From the NCBI GenBank assembly GCA_964590105.1, contig CAZPYM010000003.1, positions 72,179 through 136,178 of the forward strand: DNA of 64,000 nucleotides, written 5' to 3'. This stretch comes from an uncultured Gammaproteobacteria bacterium (GTDB taxonomy: Bacteria > Patescibacteriota > Patescibacteriia > UBA11705 > JABHMO01). The notes beneath the pieces were generated by a model. It made no database searches, was not told the DNA's origin, and was given only the letters and a program-made list of their open reading frames with translations. The position numbers and the translations under genes are program-made. This document shows, one piece after another, positions 3,727 to 50,082 of the stretch (positions within the stretch are counted from its first letter, which is position 1; each line of letters opens with the position of its first letter).

Positions 3727-4143
3727 ATGCCAACAATAAATCAATTAGTCCGACAGGGACGAAAAAGCGCGAAATCAAAGTCAAAAACACCGGCTTTGCA
3801 AACTGTTTTTAATACTTTAAAAAGACGACGCCGAACATTAAAAAAGGGAGCGTCTTTCAAACGTGGAGTGTGTCTGAAAGTGACTACTACGACTCCGAAA
3901 AAGCCGAACTCAGCCCTTCGAAAAATCGCTCGTGTGCGCTTGTCAAATGGCCAGGAGGTAACAACCTATATTCCTGGTGAGGGACACAATTTGCAGGAAC
4001 ACTCAATTGTCATGTTGCGCGGCGGCAGAGTAAAAGACTTGCCTGGTGTTCGTTACCATATTGTTCGTGGCGTGTATGATACGCAGGGAGTGGATGGCCG
4101 GAAGCAGTCTCGATCTTTGTACGGAGCAAAAAAAGCAAAATAA
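3727..4143 (+). CDS. rpsL: 30S ribosomal protein S12
   Basis: [13 protein letters not shown]...[10 protein letters not shown]...[10 protein letters not shown] is the canonical S12 sequence. Confidence 0.95.
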
Positions 4144-4204
4144 AATTGCTGATAATTGGTTTAATAGTTGATATCGGTGATTTTTTGTTCAAATCAAATT
4201 TAAA

Positions 4205-4983: not shown

Positions 4984-7062
4984 ATGCCGAGAGAATATTC
5001 TTTAGAAAATACCAGAAATATAGGTATTATCGCTCACATTGATGCCGGTAAAACTACGGTTTCCGAGCGCATTTTATTTTACACTGGGAAAAAACATAAG
5101 ATAGGAGAAGTTCATGAAGGACAGGCGGAAATGGACTGGATGGAACAGGAAAAGGAAAGAGGCATCACTATTACTTCTGCCGCCACCACTTGTTTTTGGA
5201 ACGGCAAAAGAATTAATATTATCGACACTCCCGGCCACGTGGATTTTACCGCCGAAGTGGAACGATCTTTGCGTGTGCTTGATGGCGGCGTGATAGTTTT
5301 TGACGGCGTAGCCGGTGTGGAGCCGCAGTCTGAGACTGTATGGCATCAGGCCGTGAAATACAATGTTCCGCGCTTGGGATTTATTAATAAAATGGATCGC
5401 ATGGGCGCGGATTTTTATGCTGACATGGAATCTATTTATGAGAGATTGACCAAGGCCGCTCATCCTATTCAGTTGCCGATCGGCGCGGCTGAAACATTTA
5501 GAGGAATTATTGATTTATTTGAAAGGCGAGCTTACATTCATGAGGATGACCTCGGAATAAAAATTAATGAAATCGATGTTCCCGAAGACATGAAAGAAAA
5601 AACAGAAAAATACCGTGGAAAATTAGTCGAAGCTATAGTTGAAAACGATGAAGCTTTGATGGATAAATATTTAGCCGGAGAAGAAATCCCCGTCGCAGAC
5701 TTAAAAAGAGTTTTGCGCAAGGCGACAATAGAAAACAAAATTGTACCAATCTTAGTTGGCAGCGCTCTGAAGAACAAGGGAGTTCAGGCATTACTTGACG
5801 CGATTGTCGACTTTTTGCCCTCACCACTTGAAATTCCACCAATGCAGGGCACTGATCCAAACGATCCTGAAAAAGTCATTACTGTGAACGCCAGCGATGA
5901 AGAGCCTTTTGCCGGCTTGGCATTCAAGATTGCCACTGATCCATATGTTGGCAAGCTTTGTTTTGTGCGCGTTTACTCAGGAGCTTTAAGGTCAGGTTCA
6001 TATGTATTAAATACTTTCACTAATAATAAAGAGAGAATCGGACGTTTAGTGCGTATGCACGCCAATCATCGAGAGGAGGTTAGTGAAGCTTTTGCTGGTG
6101 AAATAGTCGCGGTTATTGGTTTGAAAAATACTTTTACAGGGCATACTCTTTGCGATGAGAGTCGACCGGTTATCCTGGAAAACATTGTATTTCCCGAGCC
6201 GGTTATTTCAGTTGCTATTGAACCGAAAACCAAGGCTGATCAGGAAAAAATGGGTATGGCTATGCAAAAATTGGCTGAAGAAGACCCGACCTTTAGAATT
6301 CGCACTGACGAAGAAACAATGCAAACAATTATTTCCGGCATGGGGGAACTTCATTTGGATATTTTGGTTGATCGAATGAAAAGAGAATTTGGTGTGGAAG
6401 CTAATATTGGTAAACCGCAAGTGGCTTATAAAGAAACAATTAAAAAGACTGCAGAAGCAGAGGGAAAATATGTTCGTCAGTCAGGTGGCCGCGGACAATA
6501 TGGTCATTGCTGGCTTAGAGTCTCTCCTCGAGAACGCGGAGAAGGATTTGAATTTTTGGATGAAGTCAAGGGGGGCGCAATCCCGCGAGAATTTATTCCG
6601 GCAATTCAAAAGGGAGTCAAAGAATCGTTAGACAAAGGAATTCTGGCGGGTTATCCGCTCATTGATGTTCAGGTCACTGTTTACGATGGTAGTTTCCATG
6701 ATGTTGACTCTTCTGAGGCGGCCTTTAAGATTGCCGGTTCTCTGGCTTTTCAGGAAGCCACAAAAAGAGCTTCCCTCGTTCTTTTGGAGCCGATTATGAA
6801 AGTGGAAGCTGTGGTGCCAGAAAAATTTTTGGGCGACGTGGTTGGTGATTTAAATTCAAAAAGAGCGCAAATAAATGAAATGAAAGATCGCGCAAATGCC
6901 AAGGTTGTTGAGGCTCAGGTGCCGCTGGCTGAAATGTTTGGTTATGCGACTTCACTCCGATCAATGACACAGGGGCGCGGCAGCTACTCAATGGAATTTC
7001 TAAAGTATTCTGAAGTCCCGGCCAATGTGGTTGAGGCAATCTTAGTCGCAAAGGGACGGTAA
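4984..7062 (+). CDS. fusA: elongation factor G
   Basis: Start chosen at [25 protein letters not shown] (G1 motif). Full-length EF-G with DTPGHVDF and NKMD motifs. Confidence 0.95.
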
Positions 7063-22805: not shown

Positions 22806-23585
22806 ATGAAACGTCTCGGATATATGCTGTTGATTTTTGTTTTGAATGGCTGTCTGCAAAAGCCGTCTCCCTGGGTGCCGTCAGGCGACTGGGCGGGAGA
22901 AGTCCTTGCAGAAGCAGTAATTACTATTCATCCTGATCTGGAGGGGGAAGCCGAACCGTTGGATCTCCTGGATCAGACAGAGGACAAGCATCGGCAGGAA
23001 AATGAAGACTTGTCTACGAAGGACAAGGATCTGTCGGTGGAAGTTTCGGATCTTGATTTCGTGGAACAATGCACTTCTGACAATGAACTTGCAGCAGACA
23101 CGCCGGAAGTGGACTTTGAAACAGATGACGACACGGCAGATGTCTCCACTTTCGATGTCCCAGTCTGCCCGCCGGGCTATGTCTGGAGCAAAACGCAGGG
23201 TAAGTGCGTTTCATTCTGCGCGGCTGATCAGTATTATGAAGCAAACCTGGGCAAGTGCGTATACTACCCGTGTTGTGACCTTTCTGGTAGCTGGGAATTA
23301 AGCATACTTGATTCAGACACCATGCTCTTCACGATTTATCAGTTGACGATCAATCAGTTGATATCGTACTTGGAAGGCGATGCAAAATGTGTTTCGCTGT
23401 CGGAAGAGGCCAAGTGCTATGGCCTGCTGGAAGATAAAAAGTTCACGCTGAACTGTGTGAGCAATGAATACACACTTGTGCTCACGTCTGGCATTACGAC
23501 AGTAACTTCATTTATTGGATTTTACAGTTACCAGTACACTGATGGTAATTTTAAAAATGGTTCGTTTAACGTAAAAAAATTATAA
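22806..23585 (+). CDS. lipoprotein with an acidic variable N-terminal region and a conserved Cys-rich C-terminal domain (paralog 1)
   Basis: Lipobox-like signal MKRLGYMLLIFVLNGC. A D/E-rich region is followed by a C-terminal domain of about 150 aa with at least 8 Cys. That domain is near-identical to the next gene. Confidence 0.7.
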   Translation: MKRLGYMLLIFVLNGCLQKPSPWVPSGDWAGEVLAEAVITIHPDLEGEAEPLDLLDQTEDKHRQENEDLSTKDKDLSVEVSDLDFVEQCTSDNELAADTPEVDFETDDDTADVSTFDVPVCPPGYVWSKTQGKCVSFCAADQYYEANLGKCVYYPCCDLSGSWELSILDSDTMLFTIYQLTINQLISYLEGDAKCVSLSEEAKCYGLLEDKKFTLNCVSNEYTLVLTSGITTVTSFIGFYSYQYTDGNFKNGSFNVKKL

Positions 23586-23622: not shown

Positions 23623-23725
23623 TTAATAATATGTGGCGAGGTCTTATTAATGGTTGTTGACATTTTTATTTCGCTATTGTAAAGTAATTGGTAATAATTG
23701 TTCTTTACCCAACAAGGAGAACGCG

Positions 23726-24406
23726 ATGAAGTATTTTGTATGTTTCTTTCTGGCCCTCATTTTCAGTTCATGTATAAAACGAGTTGATTGGGGTGAGTTT
23801 GTCCCTTTGGACGAGCTTTCAGTTGATTCTGATATTAATGTTGGCGAAACAGAGATTTTTCAGCTATTGGATGGTAGCGGTGAGCAACACGAGAATTTGT
23901 TTGATTCTATCACGTCTGAGTTATTGGATACAAATATTGCCCCCCTGAGAGAGATAAAAGAGACCGTATCCGTTGATGTGCTGGTTTGTGCTCCGGGCTA
24001 TGTCTGGAGCGAAGCGCAGGGCAAGTGCGTTTCATTCTGCGCGGCTGATCAGTATTATGAAGCAAAACTGGGCAAGTGCGTATACTACCCGTGCTGTGAT
24101 CTTTCCGGCGACTGGGAATTAAGCATACTTGATTCAGACACAATGCTTTTTACGATCTATCAGGTAAAGATCAATCAGCTGACATCGTACTTGGAAGGTG
24201 AGGCAAAATGTGTTTTACCGTTGGAACAGGCGGATTGTTACGGTTTGCTTGAAGACAAAAAATTCGCGTTTAATTGCGTGAGCAATGATTACACGCTGGT
24301 GCTCACGTCCGGACTGGCGACAGTAACTTCATTTATTGGATTTTACAGTTACCAGTACACTGATGGTAATTTTAAAAATGGTTCGTTCAACGTAAAAAAA
24401 TTATAA
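23726..24406 (+). CDS. lipoprotein paralog 2 (Cys-rich C-terminal domain)
   Basis: Start MKYFVCFFLALIFSSC (lipobox). AAGGAG RBS. The C-terminal 150 aa are about 85-90% identical to the previous gene, and there is long nucleotide identity as well. Confidence 0.7.
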   Translation: MKYFVCFFLALIFSSCIKRVDWGEFVPLDELSVDSDINVGETEIFQLLDGSGEQHENLFDSITSELLDTNIAPLREIKETVSVDVLVCAPGYVWSEAQGKCVSFCAADQYYEAKLGKCVYYPCCDLSGDWELSILDSDTMLFTIYQVKINQLTSYLEGEAKCVLPLEQADCYGLLEDKKFAFNCVSNDYTLVLTSGLATVTSFIGFYSYQYTDGNFKNGSFNVKKL

Positions 24407-24529: not shown

Positions 24530-25708
24530 CTATCTCTTTTCTTTTGCCTTGGCCCTGACCGCCTGGCACCAGGGCAAGCCCCAGACGTACCAGGGGCAAG
24601 CGTTTTCCGGCTTGGACGCGCACATGCCCATCTGACAGAGCGCGGCGCGAGCCGGTTCAAAGGTCTCCGGACAAACCGCCACCTTGATCAGCTCGCAGAT
24701 ATCCGCGAGCGGGATCATGGTCGGCGTGGTGGCGGGAGCAGTGATGCTCCCGTTCAGCAGGAACTGGCCTTCGTGATGGAAATACCACACACCGGAGGGG
24801 CCCATGCCTTCGTCCGACAGTTCCCGCCAGTTGTTTACGATGACCTTGCCGCGAACCTTCTGCTCTTCATAGCGCAAGACTCGCGCCAGGGTGAAAAGCT
24901 TCAGGTTGGCACGGCGGGCCGTGTGAATGGTCACATGACCGGCCGGTCGTCTCTGGACAACGATGTCAGCGTTGGCGCCGTCCTTGAAGCGGCCGGCGCG
25001 GCCGATTTCGTTGTTGTCCGATTCGATGGCCAGGAGAACAAGCGTGCGCTCGTTCGGGCCCTTGATCTTGCTGATCTGGCCCTTTTCTTTGATTTCCTCG
25101 AGCGCGGCCTTGAAGGCCTCGTCCTGCGCCTTTTCCGCGTCAGCGGTATAGGCCAGCCAGTTCGCCGCGGAAATCTCAGGCTTGTTCGGATTCTGCTCGA
25201 CGAGTAGTTTGCCGAAATAGTCCTTGCCGAACTCCTTGGTTTTCTTCTCCGCCCGAATCTTGGCGCGGATGGCCACAAGGGCCCAGTCGATGATCTCGGC
25301 GGTCTGTTCCGAGAAAACCCGGTGCAGCATGTTCACGTACGTGGCCAGCCCACCAGGCTGATCGCGTCCGTGGAGGTCATTGTCCAGGACATAGGACAGA
25401 ACCTCCTTCAGTTCCTCGTTGTCCCGGACGCCGAGTGCCCTCGCCACCAGTGTGGCCGCGCATTCGTCCTCTTTCTTCGCCTCCCCGTTGGCGGGATGCT
25501 CATCAAACTCGCCACCCAGCACTCCGACGTGGATGATGCCGTGTGGACAGTGCGTTTTTAGAAACTCCTTGGTGCCGTACAGCTCAAGGAGGGAGATTGC
25601 CGCGATTTCCTCCACGTGGAGGGCGGCGTGAGTGAGAAACCAGATCTTCCGGCCTGCGACCGTGATCTGGAATCGGATGAAATTCCCTTGTCTTTCTATT
25701 GTTTTCAA
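24530..25708 (-). CDS. hypothetical protein (392 aa) on a GC-rich island. Apparent TTG start. His-rich N-terminal region and a Cys-cluster C-terminus.
   Basis: Long ORF with strong GC3 bias in about 57% GC DNA, a G-rich RBS and a terminator. Motifs THAALHVEE, HCPHGIIHVGVLGGEFDEH and 5 Cys in the last 45 aa. I cannot assign a family. Confidence 0.55.
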   Translation of the reverse strand: MKTIERQGNFIRFQITVAGRKIWFLTHAALHVEEIAAISLLELYGTKEFLKTHCPHGIIHVGVLGGEFDEHPANGEAKKEDECAATLVARALGVRDNEELKEVLSYVLDNDLHGRDQPGGLATYVNMLHRVFSEQTAEIIDWALVAIRAKIRAEKKTKEFGKDYFGKLLVEQNPNKPEISAANWLAYTADAEKAQDEAFKAALEEIKEKGQISKIKGPNERTLVLLAIESDNNEIGRAGRFKDGANADIVVQRRPAGHVTIHTARRANLKLFTLARVLRYEEQKVRGKVIVNNWRELSDEGMGPSGVWYFHHEGQFLLNGSITAPATTPTMIPLADICELIKVAVCPETFEPARAALCQMGMCASKPENACPWYVWGLPWCQAVRAKAKEKR

Positions 25709-25935
25709 TTTTCCCCCCTATTTTGGTTGTCAATTTGCAAACTCTACGAAATCGTATTATAGCATATAAAAATTTAAATGTCAAGCTGTTTTAGCTATTT
25801 TTAGCTAAAATTGCTATTTATATTAAGTTCCAAAAAGACCATTGACAAGAATAAAAAAATTGGGTAAGCTTATTTGATATATTTGTTCATTTATTGAAAT
25901 TTCTAAACGTTGTTCGAGCTTTACAAGGAGGCGCA

Positions 25936-26808
25936 ATGGCAGGAAAAAGCAAAACCGGTTTTATCGAACGAGCTATGGCTAAAGTGGCCAAGCAGATTGA
26001 AAAATTGATTGAAGAAGAAGGAAAAATGCGGATGCGTTGGGTAAAGGGTTACCACCGCATGCAACGCGCGGCGCAGGGTTTGACAAAGATTACGAGACTG
26101 AAAACCAAGAGAGCTGAAAGTTTTGGGAAGATTGTCAATTCCTGGATGCAGGAATCAATAGGCATGACCAAGGCGCGTGACGCCAAGCGAGCGCAAAGGG
26201 AAGCCAAAGAAAAAGAGCTTCAGGAATTGAAGTTACAATTGGTTAAACTGCAGGCTGAAATCAACCGCGTGACCGGTGAAACCGATGAAATCGTGGACCA
26301 GGTTTTCAGTCTGAATGACGCAGTGGTGGCGGCGCTCGAGTCGCGGCAGGCATATCTCAGCAATCATGTGTTTCATCGTTTGATCGGCGACAATGGGGAG
26401 ATGCGCAGTCAGATCACGTTTGACAGCAAGGACGGTTTGCGCCGGGTGGTGGTTATGGTGAATCATATAACCAAGGTTCAGACCGACTTGGCTAACGCGG
26501 CCATGCTCGAGATTGATAAGTTTTTCACCCGCTTTGGCGTTGAAACCGCAGAAGACAGGCTGGAACCGGAAGTGCAGGCGCTGTACAAGCTGACGCGCGA
26601 GATCTTGATTTCACGCCAGACATTCAAGGTCGGACGGGATTTGTATCGGTTCCTCGGAATTGAGATTGATGAAGGCATTTTCCCCGAATTGTACAAGGCT
26701 CAGATGCTCCTGCGGCGCAGTCTGCGCAGTGAGAAAACCAATTCATACATTCGCTTGTCCAAACGAGCAAACATGAATGACAAGTGGCAGGCATTGCCCC
26801 TGCACTAG
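25936..26808 (+). CDS. hypothetical coiled-coil protein (291 aa) on a GC-rich island, divergent from the previous gene
   Basis: AGGAGG RBS 7 nt upstream of ATG 25936. N-terminal K/R/E coiled coil, then a C-terminal globular part. High GC3. Followed by a strong terminator. Confidence 0.55.
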   Translation: MAGKSKTGFIERAMAKVAKQIEKLIEEEGKMRMRWVKGYHRMQRAAQGLTKITRLKTKRAESFGKIVNSWMQESIGMTKARDAKRAQREAKEKELQELKLQLVKLQAEINRVTGETDEIVDQVFSLNDAVVAALESRQAYLSNHVFHRLIGDNGEMRSQITFDSKDGLRRVVVMVNHITKVQTDLANAAMLEIDKFFTRFGVETAEDRLEPEVQALYKLTREILISRQTFKVGRDLYRFLGIEIDEGIFPELYKAQMLLRRSLRSEKTNSYIRLSKRANMNDKWQALPLH

Positions 26809-26840
26809 ATTTGAGATCATCCCCCCGCCGTTCGCGAATG

Positions 26841-26877
26841 GCGGGGATTTTATTTTTAAACTCTTGATAAAAAGGCA
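26841..26877 (+). terminator. Rho-independent terminator
   Basis: ccccgccgttcgcgaatggcgggg hairpin followed by attttattttt. Confidence 0.7.
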
Positions 26878-26913
26878 ATAGTTTGTTATTGTGGGTTTAG
26901 TTTCAAGTTTTAT

Positions 26914-26989
26914 GCTCGTATAGCTCAGTGGTTAGAGCACCGCCCTTATAAGGCGGGGGTCGATGGTTCAAATCCATCTACGAGCACCA
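26914..26989 (+). tRNA. tRNA-Ile with anticodon UAU (as read from the loop CTTATAA)
   Basis: 76 nt cloverleaf: acceptor GCTCGTA/TACGAGC, D arm GCTC-AGTGGTTA-GAGC, anticodon stem CCGCC/GGCGG, T arm GATGG-TTCAAAT-CCATC, encoded CCA. The scaffold closely resembles bacterial tRNA-Ile(GAU) but has TAT in the anticodon. Confidence 0.75.
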
Positions 26990-27050
26990 TTCTTCGCTCC
27001 GCTAAGGCGGAGCTACGAATGGCGCGCCAAAGTTTGTAACGTTCAGTTCA

Positions 27051-27127
27051 GGGCAGCTAGCTCAGTTGGTTAGAGCGTCTCGTTGACGTCGAGAAGGTCA
27101 CAAGTTCGACTCTTGTGCTGCCCACCA
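27051..27127 (+). tRNA. tRNA-Val (anticodon GAC)
   Basis: 77 nt. Acceptor GGGCAGC/GCTGCCC, anticodon loop TTGACGT, T arm ACAAG-TTCGACT-CTTGT, encoded CCA. Confidence 0.8.
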
Positions 27128-27195
27128 TAAGAAATAAATATATTTAACTGTTTATTTTTTTTTGCCTTTTTATGTTATAATGAAAAAAATCAAAT

Positions 27196-28218
27196 ATGAT
27201 GATATTTATCTGGAGTATTATTTTAGTCACGAGCCTCTGGGTTCTGGTAAAGGCCGCTGACTATTTCACTGATTATGCTGAAAAGTTGGGTAAATTACTT
27301 CACCTGTCCAATTTTATTATTGGAGTTGTGATTGTGGCTGTCGGTACATCTTTGCCGGAACTGGCCACGTCCATCATGGGAGTTAGGCGGGGAGAGGTTG
27401 AAATGCTTAGTGGCAATGTGATCGGAACAATCATTGCTAATCTATTGCTTGGCCTCGGACTGGCGGTTTTATTTACTAGAAAAAAGGCGGTTTTCAATTG
27501 GGACATTGTGTCCAATGATTTTCCGTTTTTTGCCGGCGCGATATTTTTACTGGCCGTGACATTGATGGACGGCAAGTTCACTTTTGTTGAGGCGATTTTA
27601 TTTTTAGTCGGCTATGTTCTTTATTTATTGTATGCCTTTTTTATTCAAAAGGAGGAAAGCGCTGTCACGCGCCAGGAGTTTAGAAAAGAGCTAAAAAAAG
27701 AAGTTGAAACAGGCATTGAAGAAACACAAAAAAGAGAAAAAAAAGCCGGCTTTCTTGCCACGATGATTAGTGAAAACACAAAAACGATTTTGGTTTTAAT
27801 TGTCAGTCTGGGAATTGTTTCTTTCGCTTCTTATTATGTAGTGGAAGCAGTAATCAATATGGCTGTCTTGCTTGGCTTCGGAGCTTCGGTTCTGGCGGCA
27901 ACAGTGGTGGCAGTGGGAACTTCACTCCCTGAAATATTGATTGCAATTTCAGCGGCGCGGCGCGGTAATTTTGACCTGGCGCTGGGCGATATTTTCGGTT
28001 CAAACATCTTTGATATTTTCGTGATTTACGGCGTGGCTGGCCTCATGACAACCTTAACAATCAGTCCGGCTTTGTTCAGCACTTTAATTATATTTTTAAT
28101 TGGAACCTTTATCCTGCTCTGGTTGGTATTGATTGACAAAAAAATTACAAAAACAGAGGCAACACTCTTTCTTATTATTTATTTATTTTTCATCGGTAAA
28201 ATGTTTTTGTTGTTTTAA
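27196..28218 (+). CDS. Ca2+/Na+ antiporter, CaCA family (YrbG-like)
   Basis: Two alpha-repeats containing GTSLPEL / GTSLPEI, with about 10 TM segments. Confidence 0.8.
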   Translation: MMIFIWSIILVTSLWVLVKAADYFTDYAEKLGKLLHLSNFIIGVVIVAVGTSLPELATSIMGVRRGEVEMLSGNVIGTIIANLLLGLGLAVLFTRKKAVFNWDIVSNDFPFFAGAIFLLAVTLMDGKFTFVEAILFLVGYVLYLLYAFFIQKEESAVTRQEFRKELKKEVETGIEETQKREKKAGFLATMISENTKTILVLIVSLGIVSFASYYVVEAVINMAVLLGFGASVLAATVVAVGTSLPEILIAISAARRGNFDLALGDIFGSNIFDIFVIYGVAGLMTTLTISPALFSTLIIFLIGTFILLWLVLIDKKITKTEATLFLIIYLFFIGKMFLLF

Positions 28219-28276
28219 TAACAAAATAAAAACTTCTTTGGCGATTTAAACTGTCCCCTAGAAGGCGGACAAAACA

Positions 28277-29272
28277 ATGAATTTATGGCCATGGAATTGT
28301 TTTTTTGAGCGGGGCTTTAATCGAATAACAATTCGTATGAACAAAGACATGGTTAAGCTAGTTGAGCCAATGTACCCTTGTCAGGATGTGCCAGTTGTTG
28401 TATTTGACGTCAGATGCCCAAAACCTTGCTTGTATTGCGATTTGTATCAGCGAGAATTTTCAGATGATCAGATAATTGCTGTCGGCGTAGACAATGTTTT
28501 AAAAAAATTGAAAAATTATAGCGGCGCATATTTTAGCGCGGTGTCGGATTGTTTTTTAGAAGAGAATCGGGAGCTGACCCATTATTTGTTGGAAAACATT
28601 TTTAGAATTATTCCGGATTTTGTGCCGTTGGTCGTTACTAAACAAATAATTCCGGATAAAACAATTGACTTGTTGATTGGGAATAAAGACCGAGTAGTTG
28701 TTCAGGTTTCAATTCCAAGTTTAAATGATAAATTGCTTTCAGTACTTGAACCTGGCGCGGCGGTAGTTGCTGATAGATTAAAACTAATTAAAAAATTAAT
28801 CAGCGCCGGCGTTCCGGTTTTGCCAGTCATTATGCCGTGGTTTGAAATTTATGAGGCCGAAGATAATATTGAAGACCTGCCAAGAGCTCTGGCTGAAGTC
28901 GGTGTTACTCGTTGTACGCTGGGTACAAGTGTTTTACCGGAAAAACAGCGGAAGGCGATGATTGGTTCCGGAAATGGAGCGGTTATTGAAGCCGTTAATA
29001 GTATGACAGAATCAAGAGAAGTTGTAACCAAGACTGGCTATACCCTGCCATTAGGAAAAAGAATGTTGATATTTGGGCGATTGGTTGAGGCTTTTAAAAA
29101 ACATGGTATTAAGGCTCGAATTTGTTCAGCGGATAATGTTGATATGATTGGCAAAACTGATTTGCCGATTTGTACAAAGTTTAAACATCCGCTGTTCCGA
29201 ACAATTAATAAAGCAAGAAAAGCAAGTTCGCCCGCCCAATATGCCAGCCGAGGCAGGCGGGTGGGTTGCTAA
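28277..29272 (+). CDS. radical SAM domain protein (SplB / COG1533-like DNA-repair-photolyase family)
   Basis: CPKPCLYC = CxxxCxxC radical SAM cluster motif, in a protein of about 330 aa. The last roughly 15 codons run into duplicated junction sequence. Confidence 0.6.
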   Translation: MNLWPWNCFFERGFNRITIRMNKDMVKLVEPMYPCQDVPVVVFDVRCPKPCLYCDLYQREFSDDQIIAVGVDNVLKKLKNYSGAYFSAVSDCFLEENRELTHYLLENIFRIIPDFVPLVVTKQIIPDKTIDLLIGNKDRVVVQVSIPSLNDKLLSVLEPGAAVVADRLKLIKKLISAGVPVLPVIMPWFEIYEAEDNIEDLPRALAEVGVTRCTLGTSVLPEKQRKAMIGSGNGAVIEAVNSMTESREVVTKTGYTLPLGKRMLIFGRLVEAFKKHGIKARICSADNVDMIGKTDLPICTKFKHPLFRTINKARKASSPAQYASRGRRVGC

Positions 29273-29443
29273 GGTAAAAGTTTTTAATTTACAAAAACAG
29301 AGGCAATGCTTTTCCTTGTTATTTATTTATTCTTTATCGGTAAGATGTTTTTGCTATTCTAATGGCAAAATGAGAAAATAAAAAATTAAGAAATAAAATA
29401 TAAAAACTTCCTCAGCGATAGCCGCGGAAGTTTGAGTTTTGGA

Positions 29444-30556
29444 TTATAGCAGTTGTTTTAGTTTTTCGAGCACAACTTCATTTCCGGTATTTAATGGAAA
29501 TTTAATCAGAGTCCTATTGCCCGTAGGTTCGAGAGCGGCAAAGTGGACGCGAAGGTCAAGGTTTTTTTCAGATTTCAGCAGGCAGTAGGCCTGTTCATTT
29601 TTTTTATAGAAAATAGCGGTCAGCTCAATAGTTGGGACGCTGGCGATTAGCTCGTCAATCGCGCCGACCAGGTCCTGCGGCAGGGCATTAGTTTCTCTGA
29701 AGTCTTGTTCATTTACTTCAGCCCAGGCGATTTTTTGCAAATCATCAGTTTTGAGACTGAGAAGCACTCTGCCCCAGAGACGCAGGGCACCCACAGTTTG
29801 CATTTGATAAAGATTTTTTACAATAGACTCGCGCTGGGCTCCGGCCGCCATCAATTGGCTGGCGATACTCAAACTTTTGGGAGTAATGGCCGGGGTTTTG
29901 AAACTTTTTGTTTTTTCAATCATGCCGGTCAGAAGATAAGTGGCAATGGTTTCATCGAGCAGATTGGCATCGGTTTGTTCAATAAAGTCATAAATAATTT
30001 CCGAGACTGACGAAGAAGCAATATTAATAATATTTATGTGGCCGTAATGTTCATTATCGGGCGAATGATCAATATTAACAATCGGCACATTGTAAAAAAA
30101 ATCAGTATTTTTTTCATAAACATGAGACAATGATTCGAGATCCGGCGTGTTTACGGTAATAATCAGGTCATGATTGTAATGATTGTCGGTGATAGAAATG
30201 TTTTGTTTGGAAAAATTACTGTTGGTCGGATTGACATGAATGTGCATTTTATTTTTTTCAATTTTATAATCAATCTCCGGATGCTGGCCGTCAATAATAT
30301 CCAAACTAATAATTAATTTTTTCAAATTATCTAGGCGGCTTTGAATGGTATTTGATTGCGCTAAAAATTGGTATGAATGCGGTAATTCAAAGTCCGGCGA
30401 GACGATTGTCGCTTTTTTATCCATCTTACGAAGGAGTTCTGCGAGAGCCAGACTAGCGGCAATTACATCGCCATTGTGCTCTTGTTTGAAAGCAATGAGC
30501 GGCGTATTGCTACTTTGTATGGCTTCGTATAATTGTTGGTGTTGATTTAATGACAT
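29444..30556 (-). CDS. DHH-family phosphoesterase (NrnA-like nanoRNase / pAp phosphatase)
   Basis: DHH motif (NIDHSPDNEHYG) with an N-terminal DHH and a C-terminal DHHA1-like region. Confidence 0.7.
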   Translation of the reverse strand: MSLNQHQQLYEAIQSSNTPLIAFKQEHNGDVIAASLALAELLRKMDKKATIVSPDFELPHSYQFLAQSNTIQSRLDNLKKLIISLDIIDGQHPEIDYKIEKNKMHIHVNPTNSNFSKQNISITDNHYNHDLIITVNTPDLESLSHVYEKNTDFFYNVPIVNIDHSPDNEHYGHINIINIASSSVSEIIYDFIEQTDANLLDETIATYLLTGMIEKTKSFKTPAITPKSLSIASQLMAAGAQRESIVKNLYQMQTVGALRLWGRVLLSLKTDDLQKIAWAEVNEQDFRETNALPQDLVGAIDELIASVPTIELTAIFYKKNEQAYCLLKSEKNLDLRVHFAALEPTGNRTLIKFPLNTGNEVVLEKLKQLL

Positions 30557-30844: not shown

Positions 30845-33800
30845 ATGGAGATACCCAAAGCCTACGATCCGAAAGAGCATGAAAGCCGGATTTATAAAAT
30901 GTGGGAAGAGGCCGGGCTTTTTAATCCGGACAATTTGGAGCCTAAATCCAAAAAGCATTTTTCCATTGTTTTGCCGCCGCCAAATGTTACCGGCACACTG
31001 CACCTGGGGCATGCGGCCATGCTCGCAATAGAAGATTTAATGGTCCGTTACAAAAGGATGAATGGTTTTGATACCCTCTGGATGCCTGGCACTGATCACG
31101 CGGCGATTGCCACGCAAAACGTGGTTGAAAAAAAGCTTTACAAGGAAGAAAAAAAGACCAGGCACGATCTGGGTCGTGAGAAATTTTTAAAAAAAGTTGA
31201 GCAGTATGTGGAAGGCTCAAAAAATGTTATTCATAATCAATTGCGCAAAATGGGTTCAAGCCTGGACTGGAGCCGCGAAGCGTATACTCTCGATGAAGTC
31301 AGAAGCAAGGCAGTAAAAAAGGTTTTCAAACAAATGTATGAAGACGGGCTGATTTATCGGGGTTATCGGATTGTCAATTGGTGTCCGCGCTGCCATTCAA
31401 CGCTCGCGGACGATGAGGTTGATTACAAAGAAGAAAAAGCCAAGATTTACACTTTTAAATACGATAAAAATTTTCCATTTGCTATCGCCACAACGCGGCC
31501 GGAAACCAAACTTGGGGACACGGCAGTGGCTGTGCATCCTGACGACAAGCGCTATGCAAAATATATCGGTAAAACATTTGTCGCTGATTTCTGTGGTGTT
31601 AAGTTGAATATAAAAGTAATTGCCGATGATCAGGTTGAAAAAGATTTTGGCACCGGCGCGCTTGGCGTAACCCCGGCGCATAGTTTGATTGACTACGAAA
31701 TGGCGCAAAAAAATAAATTGCCGGTGATTAAAGTTATTGACGAGGATGGAAAAATAACGGTGGCTGGCGGAAAATTTCAGGGATTAAGCGCGGAACAGGC
31801 AAGAGAAAAAATTGTTGAAGAATTAAAAAAGCAGGGGCTTTTGGAAAAGCAGGAAGAGAATCAGCACAATTTATCTGTTTGTTACCGTTGTAAATCAGTA
31901 GTGGAGCCTTTGCCGAGCGAGCAATGGTTTATCAGTATAAGTTCAAAGTTCAAAGTTAAAAGTGAAAAGTTGAGAAAAATAATCGGGAAAAAAGAGGCAA
32001 GCTTGAAGGAAATTTCGCTCGCCGTGGTAAAGAGCGGGTCGATAAAAATAATTCCAGAGCGTTTTGAAAAAATTTATTATCATTGGATGGAAAATTTGCA
32101 TGACTGGTGTATTTCCCGGCAGATTTGGTTTGGGCACAGGATCCCTGTTTGGTACAAAAAGCAAAAACAAATTATTGTTTTGCGGCACGGACAGGCGGAA
32201 AGCAATGCCCGAGATCAGCTGAATTCCGATATTTTGCGGAATCATTTTCACTTGACCGTAGAGGGTAGGGAGCAGGCGGCCGCGGCGGCGGAAGAGCTGC
32301 AAAAAGAAAAAATTGACATTATTTTTTGTTCTGATTTCGAACGGGCAAAACAAACCGCCAAAATAGTTGCCGACAAATCGGGGATTAAGCAAATTATTGA
32401 AGACGCCAGACTCAGGGAAGTGGGAGTGGGGGATTTCGAAGGCAAATCCGATATGGACTTTACCAAATTTCGTCAGCAAAACTTTGACAAGTGGCATAAA
32501 GGAAATCCGCATAACATCGAGTCCTTTGTTGAATTAAGAAGCCGTGTATTTAATTTTCTTGACGAAATAAAACAAAAGTATGGAGATAAAAAGATTTTAA
32601 TGGTAACGCACGGCGATGTGGCGCGAGTGGCGCAGGCATACGGAAAAATTTTATCGGATAAAGAAATTTATGGCCTTGATTATCCGGATACCGGAAAGTT
32701 TTATCGCGTTGATTTAAATCAAAAAACATCTGGAATCGAACTTAGTTTTCGTAATCGAAAAATATTTGAAGCGATTAAATCCGGCAGCAAAACCATTGAA
32801 ACCAGAGCTTTGAATCCTGAAGAGCCGGATCGTTATTTTGGCAATATTAAAGGCGGCGATCAGATAATTTTGAATTATAAGCAAGGGGAGTATATTTTAG
32901 AAAGTTTAAAATCAAAAGTCAAAGCGGCGAGGCGGTACAAAACCATTGAAGAATTGTTAGCCAAGGAAAAGATGTCTAAAATTTTTCCCGGCAAAAACAT
33001 TGATTATAAAAAATCCTATTCTGATCTGGTGCCCGGAAATTTGGAAAAAATAAGCAAGAACGGAATAATAGCTTTTGAGCTTGGAAAAGTTGAAAAGTAT
33101 AATAAAAATATCACGCTTCGCGTTTCTGAAGAAGAACTGCCGGCTGCCGAATGGAAACAAGATGAGGATACTCTTGATACCTGGTTTTCTGCAGGTCTTT
33201 GGACTTTCAGTACGCTCTTGCCGAAGGATTGGGACGGAAAAGAATTTAAATCCAAGGATTTGGAACGATTTCATCCAACGACCGTGCTGGAAACCGGTTA
33301 TGACATTTTGTTTTTCTGGGTGGCGAGGATGATACTCATGACCACTTATGCGACGGGCGAAATACCTTTTGAAACAGTTTATCTGCACGGCCTGATTCGC
33401 GACAAAGACGGCGACAAAATGAGCAAATCCAAACCAGAGACGGCGATTGATCCGGTTGAAGCCGGCAATAAATATGGATTTGACGCGGTGCGTTTGAGCT
33501 TGCTTATCGGCAATACGGCGGGCAATGATATTCGGCTTTATGATGAAAAGATTGAGGGGTACAGGAATTTTGTTAATAAGTTGTGGAATATTAGTCGGTT
33601 TGTGTTGCAAAATAACAAATTACAAGACACAAATTACAAGCAAATTACAAATAACAAATTACAAACAGTTGCATTGACTTTAGCGGATAAGTGGATACTT
33701 TCGCGATTCAATAAGTTAAAATGCGAGGTAAATAAATTGCTGGATGAATATAATTTTTCACAGGCCGGCGAGATTTTGCGGGAATTTACCTGGAATGATT

Positions 33801-34483
33801 TTGCCGACTGGTATTTGGAAATTTCAAAAGTTGCCCTTCGGCAAGATCAGGGTGACAATCGAAATTTAATTTTGAATTCAATTTTTCGGGAATTGCTGAA
33901 ATTGTGGCATCCTTTTGTGCCGTTTGTGACAGAGGCTGTTTGGTCCCTCGCTATGCTCGGGATGACACAGCAAGCAAAAAGTATTATGGTTTCTGATTGG
34001 CCAGCGGTCGAAAAGGGATTAATTGATGAAAAAGCGGAAAAAGGATTTGAAAAAATTCAAGAAATAATTATTAAAATCAGAAATTTGCGGGCTGAATACA
34101 AAGTCAATCCGGGGAAGAAGATTTCTGTTTCCATCAAAGGCGCTTCAATTGGCGAAAATGAAATAGTTGTAAAAACCTTAGCTCGTCTGGAAAAAATTAC
34201 TTACGTAAAAATAAAACCGGAAAAAGCAGCCGGCGCGGTTGTCGGTAAAAGGGAGATTTATTTGTTGTTATCAGATTTGGTTGATGTTGATAAAGAAAAA
34301 GAGAGACTGGAAAAAGAAAAAGCCGACCTTGAAAAATATTGCTTCGGATTGGATAAAAAACTTCAGAATAAAGAGTTTACGAAAAATGCTCCGGTGGCCG
34401 TGGTTGACGGAGAGCGGGCAAAACTCACGGAGGCGGAAGAAAAATTAGGAAAAACAAATACGCAATTAAGTGAATTAAAATAA
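30845..34483 (+). CDS. valS: valyl-tRNA synthetase carrying an in-frame histidine-phosphatase (PGAM-like) + ASCH domain insertion
   Basis: HLGHA (HIGH), CP1 editing domain (TTRPETKLGDTAVAVHPDD), DWCISRQIWFGHRIPVWY, KMSKS, and a C-terminal coiled coil. Between WY (about 32154) and QDEDTLDTWFS (about 33158) about 330 extra residues contain IVLRHGQAESN and VTHGD (histidine phosphatase) and G-SKTIETR (ASCH). Length is 1212 aa against roughly 880 typical. Confidence 0.9.
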   Translation: MEIPKAYDPKEHESRIYKMWEEAGLFNPDNLEPKSKKHFSIVLPPPNVTGTLHLGHAAMLAIEDLMVRYKRMNGFDTLWMPGTDHAAIATQNVVEKKLYKEEKKTRHDLGREKFLKKVEQYVEGSKNVIHNQLRKMGSSLDWSREAYTLDEVRSKAVKKVFKQMYEDGLIYRGYRIVNWCPRCHSTLADDEVDYKEEKAKIYTFKYDKNFPFAIATTRPETKLGDTAVAVHPDDKRYAKYIGKTFVADFCGVKLNIKVIADDQVEKDFGTGALGVTPAHSLIDYEMAQKNKLPVIKVIDEDGKITVAGGKFQGLSAEQAREKIVEELKKQGLLEKQEENQHNLSVCYRCKSVVEPLPSEQWFISISSKFKVKSEKLRKIIGKKEASLKEISLAVVKSGSIKIIPERFEKIYYHWMENLHDWCISRQIWFGHRIPVWYKKQKQIIVLRHGQAESNARDQLNSDILRNHFHLTVEGREQAAAAAEELQKEKIDIIFCSDFERAKQTAKIVADKSGIKQIIEDARLREVGVGDFEGKSDMDFTKFRQQNFDKWHKGNPHNIESFVELRSRVFNFLDEIKQKYGDKKILMVTHGDVARVAQAYGKILSDKEIYGLDYPDTGKFYRVDLNQKTSGIELSFRNRKIFEAIKSGSKTIETRALNPEEPDRYFGNIKGGDQIILNYKQGEYILESLKSKVKAARRYKTIEELLAKEKMSKIFPGKNIDYKKSYSDLVPGNLEKISKNGIIAFELGKVEKYNKNITLRVSEEELPAAEWKQDEDTLDTWFSAGLWTFSTLLPKDWDGKEFKSKDLERFHPTTVLETGYDILFFWVARMILMTTYATGEIPFETVYLHGLIRDKDGDKMSKSKPETAIDPVEAGNKYGFDAVRLSLLIGNTAGNDIRLYDEKIEGYRNFVNKLWNISRFVLQNNKLQDTNYKQITNNKLQTVALTLADKWILSRFNKLKCEVNKLLDEYNFSQAGEILREFTWNDFADWYLEISKVALRQDQGDNRNLILNSIFRELLKLWHPFVPFVTEAVWSLAMLGMTQQAKSIMVSDWPAVEKGLIDEKAEKGFEKIQEIIIKIRNLRAEYKVNPGKKISVSIKGASIGENEIVVKTLARLEKITYVKIKPEKAAGAVVGKREIYLLLSDLVDVDKEKERLEKEKADLEKYCFGLDKKLQNKEFTKNAPVAVVDGERAKLTEAEEKLGKTNTQLSELK

Positions 34484-49027: not shown

Positions 49028-49173
49028 AGGAAAAGCACAAATCACAAAATCCAAAACTCGAAGGAAATTCCAAATCTAAAATTCACAAATCATTTTGGAA
49101 TTTTGAATTTTGCGCTTTGAATTTAAGTCTTCAGTACGCGGTAATCGCGTTAAACATTAATCTTCCATACACT

Positions 49174-49965
49174 ATGGAGTTGAGCATAATAATTTTAAAT
49201 TACAAAATGAAGGGCTTGGTTAAAAATTGCGTCAAGACTATTTTTGAGTCTGAATTTGATCAGCCCTATGAAATAATTGTTGTGGATAATAATTCCGGCG
49301 ATGGAGTTGAAGCTATGCTTCAGGAGAGATTTCCACAAGTTAAATTTATCCAAACCGGCGCAAACCTGGGAATGGGCGCGGGAAACAACGCCGGAATTAA
49401 TGCAGCGCTGGGAAAATATGTTTTAATAATGAATCCTGATATTTTTGTGTCCAGGGATTCTTTGCAAAAACTTTATGATTATATTAGCCAGCGGTCTGAT
49501 GTTGGTCTGGTGGCGCCGCGCTTGTTAAATCCCGACAAAACCTTGCAATACACGTGCTATCGCTGGCATAAATTTTTAACGCCGGCTTTGCGACGTACTT
49601 TTTTTGGTAAAATTAAATGGGCGCAGAAAGAGTTGGATCGTTTTTTAATGCGGGACTGGGATCATGCATCAACTCGTGAAGTAGATTGGATCCAGGGCTC
49701 GTGCCTGCTCATTCCTAAAAAAGTGATTGATGAAGCCGGAGCTTTTGACGATCGTTTTTTTATGTATTTTGAGGATACTGATCTTTGTCGGCGAATTCGA
49801 AAAGCCGGATACAAAAATGTTTATTTGGCAGAGGCTGAAGTTGTTCATCTGCACCGCCGCCAGTCAGCTGATCAGAGCGGCCTGAAGTCTTTGTTCAGCA
49901 AACTGACCAGGATTCATATTGCCAGCTGGATGAAGTATATGTTGAAGTGGAAGGGGGAAAGTTAA
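49174..49965 (+). CDS. family 2 glycosyltransferase
   Basis: MELSIIILNYKMKGLVKNC...IIVVDNNSGDG... Confidence 0.8.
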   Translation: MELSIIILNYKMKGLVKNCVKTIFESEFDQPYEIIVVDNNSGDGVEAMLQERFPQVKFIQTGANLGMGAGNNAGINAALGKYVLIMNPDIFVSRDSLQKLYDYISQRSDVGLVAPRLLNPDKTLQYTCYRWHKFLTPALRRTFFGKIKWAQKELDRFLMRDWDHASTREVDWIQGSCLLIPKKVIDEAGAFDDRFFMYFEDTDLCRRIRKAGYKNVYLAEAEVVHLHRRQSADQSGLKSLFSKLTRIHIASWMKYMLKWKGES

Positions 49966-50046
49966 AAGTTAAAAGGTAAAAGGGGAAAAGGGAAAAGGTA
50001 AAAGGTAAAAGGGGAAAAGGGAAAAGGGAAAGGGGAAAAGGGAAAA
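49948..50046. repeat. tandem heptamer minisatellite (GGKAAAA)x~14 with G3-4 tracts
   Basis: gttaaaa gttaaaa ggtaaaa ggggaaaa gggaaaa ggtaaaa ggtaaaa ggggaaaa gggaaaa gggaaa ggggaaaa gggaaaa gggaaaa. It begins at the stop of the GT2 gene and ends before a terminator hairpin. Confidence 0.9.
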
Positions 50047-50058
50047 GGGAAAAGTAAG

Positions 50059-50082
50059 ACAGCCTGGAGGCTGTTTTTTTGT
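50059..50082 (+). terminator. Rho-independent terminator
   Basis: acagcc-tgga-ggctgt followed by a T7 run. Confidence 0.7.

Follow-up and report, generated by a model that had tools for sequence, protein, structure and literature searches.

A Patescibacteria genome of the Candidate Phyla Radiation (CPR) carries a gene for a radical S-adenosylmethionine (radical-SAM) protein between a gene of the CaCA (Na+/Ca2+ exchanger) family and a convergent gene for a DHH-family phosphoesterase, and the 3' end of the CaCA gene is found on both sides of this radical-SAM gene. The DNA analysed is a 64-kb stretch of that genome, called here the window, and all positions refer to it unless another locus is named. 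The features of the locus are collected in Table 1. The first copy of the repeated gene end (copy 1) closes the intact CaCA gene, and the second (copy 2) stands as a fragment downstream of the radical-SAM gene, with an in-frame TAA directly before its 23 CaCA codons. In copy 2, the CaCA codons are read in the same phase as the radical-SAM open reading frame (ORF), two TAA codons (29270 and 29285) lying between the two.

The same arrangement is present in 14 contigs that were assembled independently in ENA, Logan and JGI, and since it is identical in all of these, an assembly artefact is excluded. It has to be mentioned that three short contigs of different assemblies (L008, L010 and L055) end in copy 2 or at the start of its A-rich tract (window 29345-29371), and that two of these three come from one Logan sample and overlap each other there by about 27 nt. 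These contig ends could reflect a branch of the assembly graph, caused for example by a length polymorphism of the A-rich tract or by strain heterogeneity.

Table 1. Features between the CaCA and DHH genes (positions in the window; L037 is the Candidatus Kuenenbacteria locus with the nearest full-length relative of the radical-SAM gene)
Feature	Position	Strand	Evidence
CaCA gene (Na+/Ca2+ exchanger family), intact	27196..28218	+	Pfam PF01699, E = 2.9e-52
Repeat copy 1: CaCA codons 316-340, stop, A-rich tract, hairpin left arm and loop start	28142..28245	+	repeat search, alignment
Longest identical run TTACAAAAACAGAGGCAA; candidate crossover/core	28145..28162 (= 29289-29306)	+	5' edge of the repeat
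Junction stretch, 31 nt	28246..28276	+	without significant similarity to the CaCA unit or L037
Decayed donor-gene remnant: about 20 last codons and stop	28277..28328	+	collinear with L037, contiguous with radical-SAM homology
Radical-SAM gene, 311 aa	28337..29272	+	PF04055, family alignment
GC-rich hairpin, -28.6 kcal/mol, ending at the radical-SAM stop codon	29221..29270	+	fold
Repeat copy 2: 23 CaCA codons and stop, A-rich tract, terminator left arm	29286..29419	+	repeat search
Bidirectional terminator, complete: AAACTTCC...GGAAGTTT with A- and T-runs	29404..29440	.	fold; common to the convergent DHH gene
DHH-family phosphoesterase gene, convergent	29444..30556	-	PF01368

The duplicated CaCA gene end

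That the end of the CaCA gene recurs around the radical-SAM gene had been proposed in an initial annotation of this DNA, and the recurrence is real. A repeat search gives a first block of 91 nt (28142-28232 versus 29286-29376), ungapped and with 82% identity, above the limit of 70% that the annotation had set for such a repeat, and a second block of 23 nt (28223-28245 versus 29397-29419) with 83%. Alignment with MAFFT agrees with the search and places about 30 additional A-rich bases of copy 2 between the blocks, which correspond to a local, 22-nt-spaced duplication of the A-rich motif that follows the stop codon (AAAATAAAAA). In total, 104 nt of copy 1 match 134 nt of copy 2. The left edge of the homology is sharp and opens with the longest identical run, of 18 nt. 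Local alignment of the two flanks of the radical-SAM gene gives z = 35.7 against shuffles, and a diagnostic 16-mer and 20-mer, one per block, are each found exactly twice in the 64 kb, the expected numbers being 0.11 and 0.07. The window holds only three families of long direct repeats, this one included; no further copy of the CaCA-end repeat was found elsewhere in it, and the unit of about 110 nt flanks no other gene there, a point that the initial annotation had proposed to check.

Both copies are translatable, as had been claimed: copy 1 ends the transporter with KITKTEATLFLIIYLFFIGKMFLLF and a stop codon, and copy 2 reads FTKTEAMLFLVIYLFFIGKMFLLF between two stop codons. The coding part comprises 72 positions with 11 differences, 8 of them at third positions, which amount to 7 synonymous and 2 conservative codon changes (T/M and I/V), with frame and stop intact in copy 2. 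The mostly synonymous character of this divergence, also pointed out in the annotation, is statistically supported. Sites at which a transition would be synonymous differ in 9 of 27 cases, versus 2 of 45 for the non-synonymous ones, and when an equal number of transitions is placed randomly, two or fewer amino-acid changes are obtained with P = 0.002. Under the null model of a repeat duplicated in place, in which selection constrains copy 1 and copy 2 evolves neutrally, simulation gives P = 0.04, and a Poisson estimate about 0.02. When outgroup codons are used to polarise the changes, the sole non-conservative one (hydrophobic to Thr) proves to be derived in copy 1, the functional copy, and the polarisable changes of copy 2 are synonymous.

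The most plausible reading of copy 2 is that it was once the end of another CaCA gene, which would have been under protein-level selection for most of the divergence and truncated only recently. This second gene would have been a close relative of the first, because a derived ending, ...YLFFIGKMFLLF, is common to both copies and absent from every sampled relative. Copy 2 thus seems to have diverged while it was still coding and not to be a decayed target-site duplication (P about 0.04), and a literal in-place duplication of an attachment site is disfavoured because of this coding-type divergence.

All the confident differences between the copies are transitions (11 of 11 in the coding part and 7 of 7 in the non-coding part). 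A hypermutation process, or one resembling repeat-induced point mutation, was considered as the cause of this pattern and rejected: in the genome's own pair of paralogues, transitions already make up about 70% of the changes as a baseline, the coding differences lie in codons with two-fold degeneracy, in which a silent change can only be a transition, and the 7 of 7 in the non-coding part is not significant. No special mutational process has to be assumed for a peptide with many two-fold degenerate codons against a background of about 70%.

Insertion site, donor trace and radical-SAM gene

The closest CaCA homologues among 5.8 billion proteins show 59-66% identity and lie in syntenic loci, and seven relatives' loci were compared with the window (L034, L035, L036, L045, L046, L047 and L048). 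The order CaCA(+), DHH(-) and valyl-tRNA synthetase (ValRS) is kept in all seven, and CaCA is single-copy in each of them. The gap between CaCA and DHH measures from -18 to 165 nt in these loci, versus 1225 nt in the window. The gaps that were read contain one CaCA/DHH terminator hairpin with flanking A- and T-runs, with equivalents in L034 and L035. Upstream, where the contigs reach, RuvX and RecO are found, together with a gene for about 391-430 aa (L035, L036 and L047) and a tRNA-Ile/Val pair (checked in L034-L036). The radical-SAM gene is an insertion between ancestrally adjacent, convergent CaCA and DHH genes, which bears out what the annotation had proposed; in the seven relatives the two genes are directly adjacent. 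No empty-site or variant allele was found in the same population: contigs with identical DHH, CaCA or radical-SAM genes are all filled, raw reads not having been searched.

The radical-SAM family is small (39 clusters) and patchily distributed across CPR bacteria and DPANN archaea, and in other loci its members are never next to CaCA, DHH or ValRS. The nearest full-length relative, with 78% amino-acid identity, belongs to a Candidatus Kuenenbacteria metagenome-assembled genome (L037), in which a 145-aa gene, the radical-SAM gene and cfa (cyclopropane-fatty-acid synthase) are tightly packed in this order. The 145-aa gene, which has a weak, sub-threshold Pfam match to Nuc_deoxyrib_tr, is intact there and lies directly upstream of the radical-SAM gene. 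In a nucleotide alignment, window 28277-29225 is collinear with L037, first over the end of the 145-aa gene with its stop codon, then over the spacer and the radical-SAM gene. The 52-nt remnant at 28277-28328 differs from the 145-aa gene by a 1-nt frameshift and a 6-nt deletion, and its alignment score of 38 compares with 19.3 +/- 3.6 for dinucleotide shuffles (P = 0.0004); control upstream regions of nine other radical-SAM loci score 14-20, which is background. The GC content at third codon positions (GC3) is 0.356 in the radical-SAM gene and 0.358 in L037, and slightly higher, 0.38-0.45, in the neighbouring host genes.

Because this alignment continues upstream past the start of the radical-SAM gene, the first 20 codons of the ORF as originally listed are a pseudogene remnant of the donor gene, and the insert is a piece of an L037-like operon. 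The ORF is indeed bracketed by the duplication, as had been described, but its true start according to the family alignment is the ATG at 28337, and not 28277. An insert that starts inside a truncated donor gene points to an arbitrary DNA fragment, or to a deletion-eroded island, and not to a dedicated single-gene cassette. The proposal of a single-gene element is not supported by other loci either: none of about 27 other radical-SAM loci has CaCA nearby, flanking repeats or conserved cassette ends. At the 3' side, the family core ends near 29215-29225, and the last 17-20 codons or so form a non-native tail. These last codons had been described as running into junction sequence; about 17 of them cross the GC-rich hairpin at 29221-29270, and not repeat sequence.

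The radical-SAM protein has the motif CxxxCxxC at C27, C31 and C34. Its AlphaFold2 model (pLDDT 88.7, pTM 0.86) falls below a pLDDT of 50 at residues 289-311, so that the tail is modelled as disordered. Among PDB structures, the model resembles most closely those of spore photoproduct lyase (4FHC and related entries; TM 0.57, E = 4e-9, 18% identity), and no PDB match was found at the sequence level. The motif and a partial TIM-barrel fold are shared with spore photoproduct lyase and with COG1533, 'DNA repair photolyase'; unlike in a true spore photoproduct lyase, identity reaches only those 18%, and the family models all score far below their cut-offs. The NCBIfam matches to PA0069/Rv2578c-type radical-SAM proteins are weak and far sub-threshold (38.8 bits versus 360), and no family model reaches its cut-off. 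Weak matches were also obtained in PHROGs, a 'DNA repair photolyase' family among them, and PADLOC gave no match. As a hypothesis, the protein may be a radical-SAM lyase acting on DNA or nucleotides; it is a candidate DNA-repair enzyme.

With regard to expression, the annotation had described a terminator block after both copies. After copy 2 it is complete (29404-29433, followed by a T-run), but copy 1 retains only the left arm and the loop start of the hairpin, its right arm and T-run being missing. Copy 2, not copy 1, is thus contiguous with a complete terminator of the ancestral type, and 29404-29440 is the ancestral position of the CaCA/DHH terminator. No terminator-like or promoter-like site was found between the CaCA stop and the radical-SAM ATG. 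Because of this, and because copy 1 lacks the right arm, co-transcription of the two genes is suggested: the radical-SAM gene is most likely transcribed by read-through from CaCA, up to the old shared bidirectional terminator after copy 2. The newcomer would then be expressible because the insertion split the terminator of the host gene. The GC-rich hairpin at the radical-SAM stop may stabilise the 3' end of the transcript, or it may terminate transcription weakly. Its sequence is unique, and similar CCGCC...GGCGG hairpins are present in other intergenic regions of the window; the idea that it was a foreign or attachment-like element was rejected, such hairpins being native intergenic features. 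Searches of the repeat against Rfam gave only noise.

Recombination routes and competing explanations

The explanation that we prefer, with moderate confidence, is that the incoming DNA carried a diverged CaCA 3' end joined to the radical-SAM fragment, and that it was acquired horizontally by a Kuenenbacteria-like Patescibacterium. The two repeats would be the 3' ends of two different, once-functional CaCA genes with a recent common ancestor. The imported end, with its stop codon and half a terminator, would now complete the resident gene as copy 1, and the last 23 codons of the resident, with the original bidirectional terminator, would have been displaced downstream of the radical-SAM gene, where they would persist as a dead relic, copy 2.

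Two routes could lead to this arrangement. One is a Campbell-type integration of a circle, with the crossover in the 18-nt identical block (28145-28162 and 29289-29306), driven by a site-specific recombinase that acted in trans or has since been deleted, or by homologous recombination. The product would consist of the CaCA body, the core, the imported end with half a terminator, the insert, the core again, the resident end, the full terminator and DHH. The other route is homology-facilitated illegitimate recombination (HFIR) of a linear fragment from a related lineage in which the radical-SAM gene already lay in the loop of the CaCA terminator; the upstream join would be homologous, and the second one illegitimate, at codon 316 of the resident gene. 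Both routes would account for the sharp left edge, the fading of the homology in the terminator loop, the coding-type divergence and the presence of the ancestral terminator after copy 2 only.

Comparable gene-end duplications are known. When e14 is integrated in icd, the functional gene end comes from the prophage and 163 bp of icd are present twice; on excision, icd is restored with a conservative codon change from Asp to Glu (PMC6379469). As with e14 and phage 21 in icd of E. coli, the 3' end of a protein gene is doubled here as direct repeats around an insert, over 104 nt; the gene remains intact through one copy, the other being a dead fragment (in E. coli, the displaced icd'); the copies are not identical, their differences here being mostly synonymous, and the site is empty in relatives. 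Unlike e14, the insert measures only 1.04 kb, carries a single cargo gene and neither integrase nor excisionase, opens with a truncated donor gene, and is found at this site in no other genome. Islands that target tRNA genes, the analogy drawn in the annotation, likewise double the 3' end of a conserved gene as attL and attR; their repeats, however, are short and near-identical, whereas those described here are long, 18% diverged, derived from a protein-coding target and without an integrase. The two tRNA genes that lie 70 nt upstream of CaCA have no part in this. In HFIR during natural transformation, one homologous anchor and one illegitimate junction suffice to integrate foreign DNA (PMC3240628). 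As would be expected from HFIR, no mobile-element machinery is needed and the fragment ends are arbitrary, the donor gene being truncated; unlike here, HFIR usually deletes or replaces recipient DNA, and a duplicated gene end would arise only if the donor fragment carried a homologue of the recipient gene. The attachment-like signature that the annotation had seen at the gene end was retained in part: the gene-end duplication is there, and the e14-type pattern fits it best, but no recombinase was found and an in-place duplication of the attachment site is disfavoured. The locus can be described as a well-resolved scar of horizontal transfer in a CPR genome. Scars in which a gene end is duplicated and replaced are known as a general kind, and in this one no mobility genes can be recognised.

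Other classes of mobile element were also considered. For integron cassettes, neither a conserved attC-like boundary nor an integrase was found, and the GC hairpin is unique to the locus; across 10 radical-SAM loci there is no conserved 5' or 3' motif of a cassette end. For insertion sequences (IS) and transposons, the repeat is 104 nt long and 18% diverged, no terminal inverted repeats surround the insert, and no transposase ORF was found. A phage origin was rejected, with nothing in IMG/VR, no PADLOC match and weak PHROG matches only. A dif/Xer-like site was discarded as well, the resemblance, judged by eye only, not going beyond ACTTCC.

Several points weigh against the import of a second CaCA end. 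No recombinase was found in the 1.04-kb insert or in its neighbours (CaCA, DHH, ValRS and the tRNAs), as screened by precomputed Pfam annotations for about 18-39 kb and a Pfam scan of ten larger ORFs in 41-64 kb, and no radical-SAM relatives or CaCA-end fragments were found on IMG/VR viral contigs. Homologous recombination would be very inefficient over a stretch of about 100 nt that is 82% identical and has no more than 18 identical bases in a row. In the databases searched there is no CaCA end of the copy-2 type, no allele of this population with the site empty, and no donor in which CaCA adjoins the radical-SAM gene, the closest sampled sequences being 66% (CaCA) and 78% (radical-SAM) identical. 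The identical run of 18 nt lies at the extreme 5' edge, where an attachment core would lie, and its placement is only weakly significant, the chance of no synonymous change there being about 0.09 by our own estimate. Finally, the divergence statistics rest on 23 codons, and reject duplication in place at P about 0.02-0.04 only.

This last result bears on the simplest competing proposal, in which about 104 nt of the target were doubled at a staggered break, or by an accident of replication or repair, and the identical copies then diverged in situ, copy 1 under selection and copy 2 neutrally. It would take one step, without a second CaCA lineage, and would be compatible with an insert made of arbitrary DNA, one end of which is a truncated gene, and with the local A-rich duplication gained by copy 2. 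We rate it as quite improbable: about 7 non-synonymous differences would be expected and 2 are observed; copy 2 has neither frameshift nor stop, whereas the co-inserted donor remnant has a frameshift and deletions; and with about one third of the synonymous-transition sites differing, a very old dead fragment would have had to survive in a compact genome. No known mechanism of insertion in bacteria typically gives target duplications of about 100 nt, which weighs further against it. If the coding-type conservation reflected instead a present selection on copy 2, and not a past second gene, this copy could be retained as a short hydrophobic ORF (MLFLVIYLFFIGKMFLLF, 18 aa), as a read-through extension of the radical-SAM protein or as an RNA element. 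Its intact reading frame, internal ATG, conserved stop and position in frame with the radical-SAM gene, behind two TAA codons, would be in line with such a role, which is nonetheless hardly credible: AGAGG lies only 2 nt from the ATG, a poor ribosome-binding site, those two stop codons intervene, the shared frame has a chance of 1 in 3, no Rfam match rises above noise, and the origin of the duplication would be left unexplained.

A proposal closer to the preferred one also assumes two CaCA genes, arranged in tandem with their terminators and diverged under purifying selection. Double illegitimate recombination would then have put a foreign fragment (donor-gene tail, radical-SAM gene and hairpin) in place of everything from the loop of the first terminator through codon 315 of the second paralogue, leaving the last 23 codons of the latter and its terminator. 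The coding-type divergence and both junctions would be accounted for without a recombinase or a circular intermediate, the insert resembles an arbitrary fragment, and the genome has a tandem duplication 4 kb upstream (22806-23585 and 23654-24406). We consider it unlikely, taking into account that CaCA is single in all seven relatives' loci and that no second CaCA above 66% identity exists among the 5.8 billion proteins. Residual CaCA upstream or 5' homology was looked for in the junctions and none was detected (P = 0.25-0.5). Moreover, two near-identical transporters would have had to be retained together for long in a streamlined genome, and the identical 18-mer at the edge would be coincidental.

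Under the import of a diverged gene end, the locus offers a legible case of single-gene acquisition in a streamlined CPR genome, as the empty site, the donor-type locus, both junctions and the displaced gene end can be seen. It would illustrate how a gene can be gained by recombination with the DNA of a diverged relative, beyond phages and IS elements, leaving the disrupted host gene intact; in this case the gained gene is from a rare family of radical-SAM proteins whose fold resembles that of spore photoproduct lyase. A bolder form of the proposal, very improbable in our judgement, is that the 1.1-kb unit (replacement CaCA 3' end, radical-SAM gene and core) is a minimal mobile cassette without a recombinase of its own, moved in trans by a recombinase of the host or of a helper. 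The same very low probability is given to the joint claim that such a cassette targets the 3' end of a conserved transporter gene in CPR bacteria and repairs the gene with its own end, a single-gene version of the e14-icd strategy. If a recombinase did act on the 18-bp block, this would be a new minimal type of cassette; otherwise, the locus would be a neat and expected scar.

Other radical-SAM loci and neighbouring genes

In a more distant subfamily of the radical-SAM proteins (L024-L032, for example L024 6846-7157, and L017 3929-4669), a conserved ORF of about 103-107 aa follows directly after the radical-SAM gene, and a regulator of the TrmB family lies upstream on the opposite strand. The three genes may constitute a functional module. 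In L017, a terminator hairpin (AAAAACAGAGCTTAATGNNTCTGTTTTT) is present in three near-identical copies within 3.2 kb (3878-3905, 5986-6013 and 7007-7034), which follow TrmB-like, polyprenyl-synthase-like and radical-SAM genes and belong to a dispersed family of terminator repeats. This locus had been taken for a second case of a flanked radical-SAM gene, with 28 of 29 positions identical in the two hairpins, and was rejected as such when the third copy was found 2.1 kb upstream. In L018 and L022, a tRNA gene (tRNA-Thr at 4100-4173 and tRNA-Leu at 5914-6000, respectively) precedes the start of the radical-SAM gene by about 50 nt; a duplication of the tRNA end was looked for in both and none was found.

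Regarding the surroundings of the locus in the window, tRNA-Ile(tat) (26914-26989) and tRNA-Val(gac) (27051-27127) are encoded on the + strand, whereas L034, L035 and L036 have them on the - strand, in divergent orientation to CaCA. The pair is enclosed exactly (26867-27173) by an inverted repeat of 12 nt without mismatches (ATAAAAAGGCAA / TTGCCTTTTTAT), which suggests that the pair was inverted between short inverted repeats. Between the tRNAs and a 392-aa gene, window 25894-26846 comprises a 304-aa ORF with 49.5% GC and a GC3 of 0.59, followed by a strong GC hairpin terminator. The ORF has no Pfam match, shows a weak match to phrog_846 (E = 2e-6), is not found at that position in L035 or L036, and may be another acquired, phage-related gene. 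The 392-aa ORF itself (24530-25708, - strand) has 59% GC and a GC3 of 0.77, versus 41% GC in the genome; it is conserved and syntenic in L035 and L036 (41% amino-acid identity), has no Pfam or NCBIfam match, and is a compositional anomaly without evidence of recent transfer.

The tandem paralogues located further upstream, of unassigned function, share 459 nt at 88.7% identity, and L035 and L036 have two tandem 248-aa homologues of this pair. On the other side of DHH, ValRS (30845-34483; 1212 aa) contains an inserted histidine-phosphatase domain (His_Phos_1), which is also present in the L034-type contig, L035, L046 and L047, and absent from L045 (875 aa). Finally, at or just after the end of a glycosyltransferase ORF (49117-49965), positions 49951-50065 consist of degenerate tandem repeats that are rich in G and A and recur every 14-15 nt or so (AAAAGGGGAAAAGGG...).

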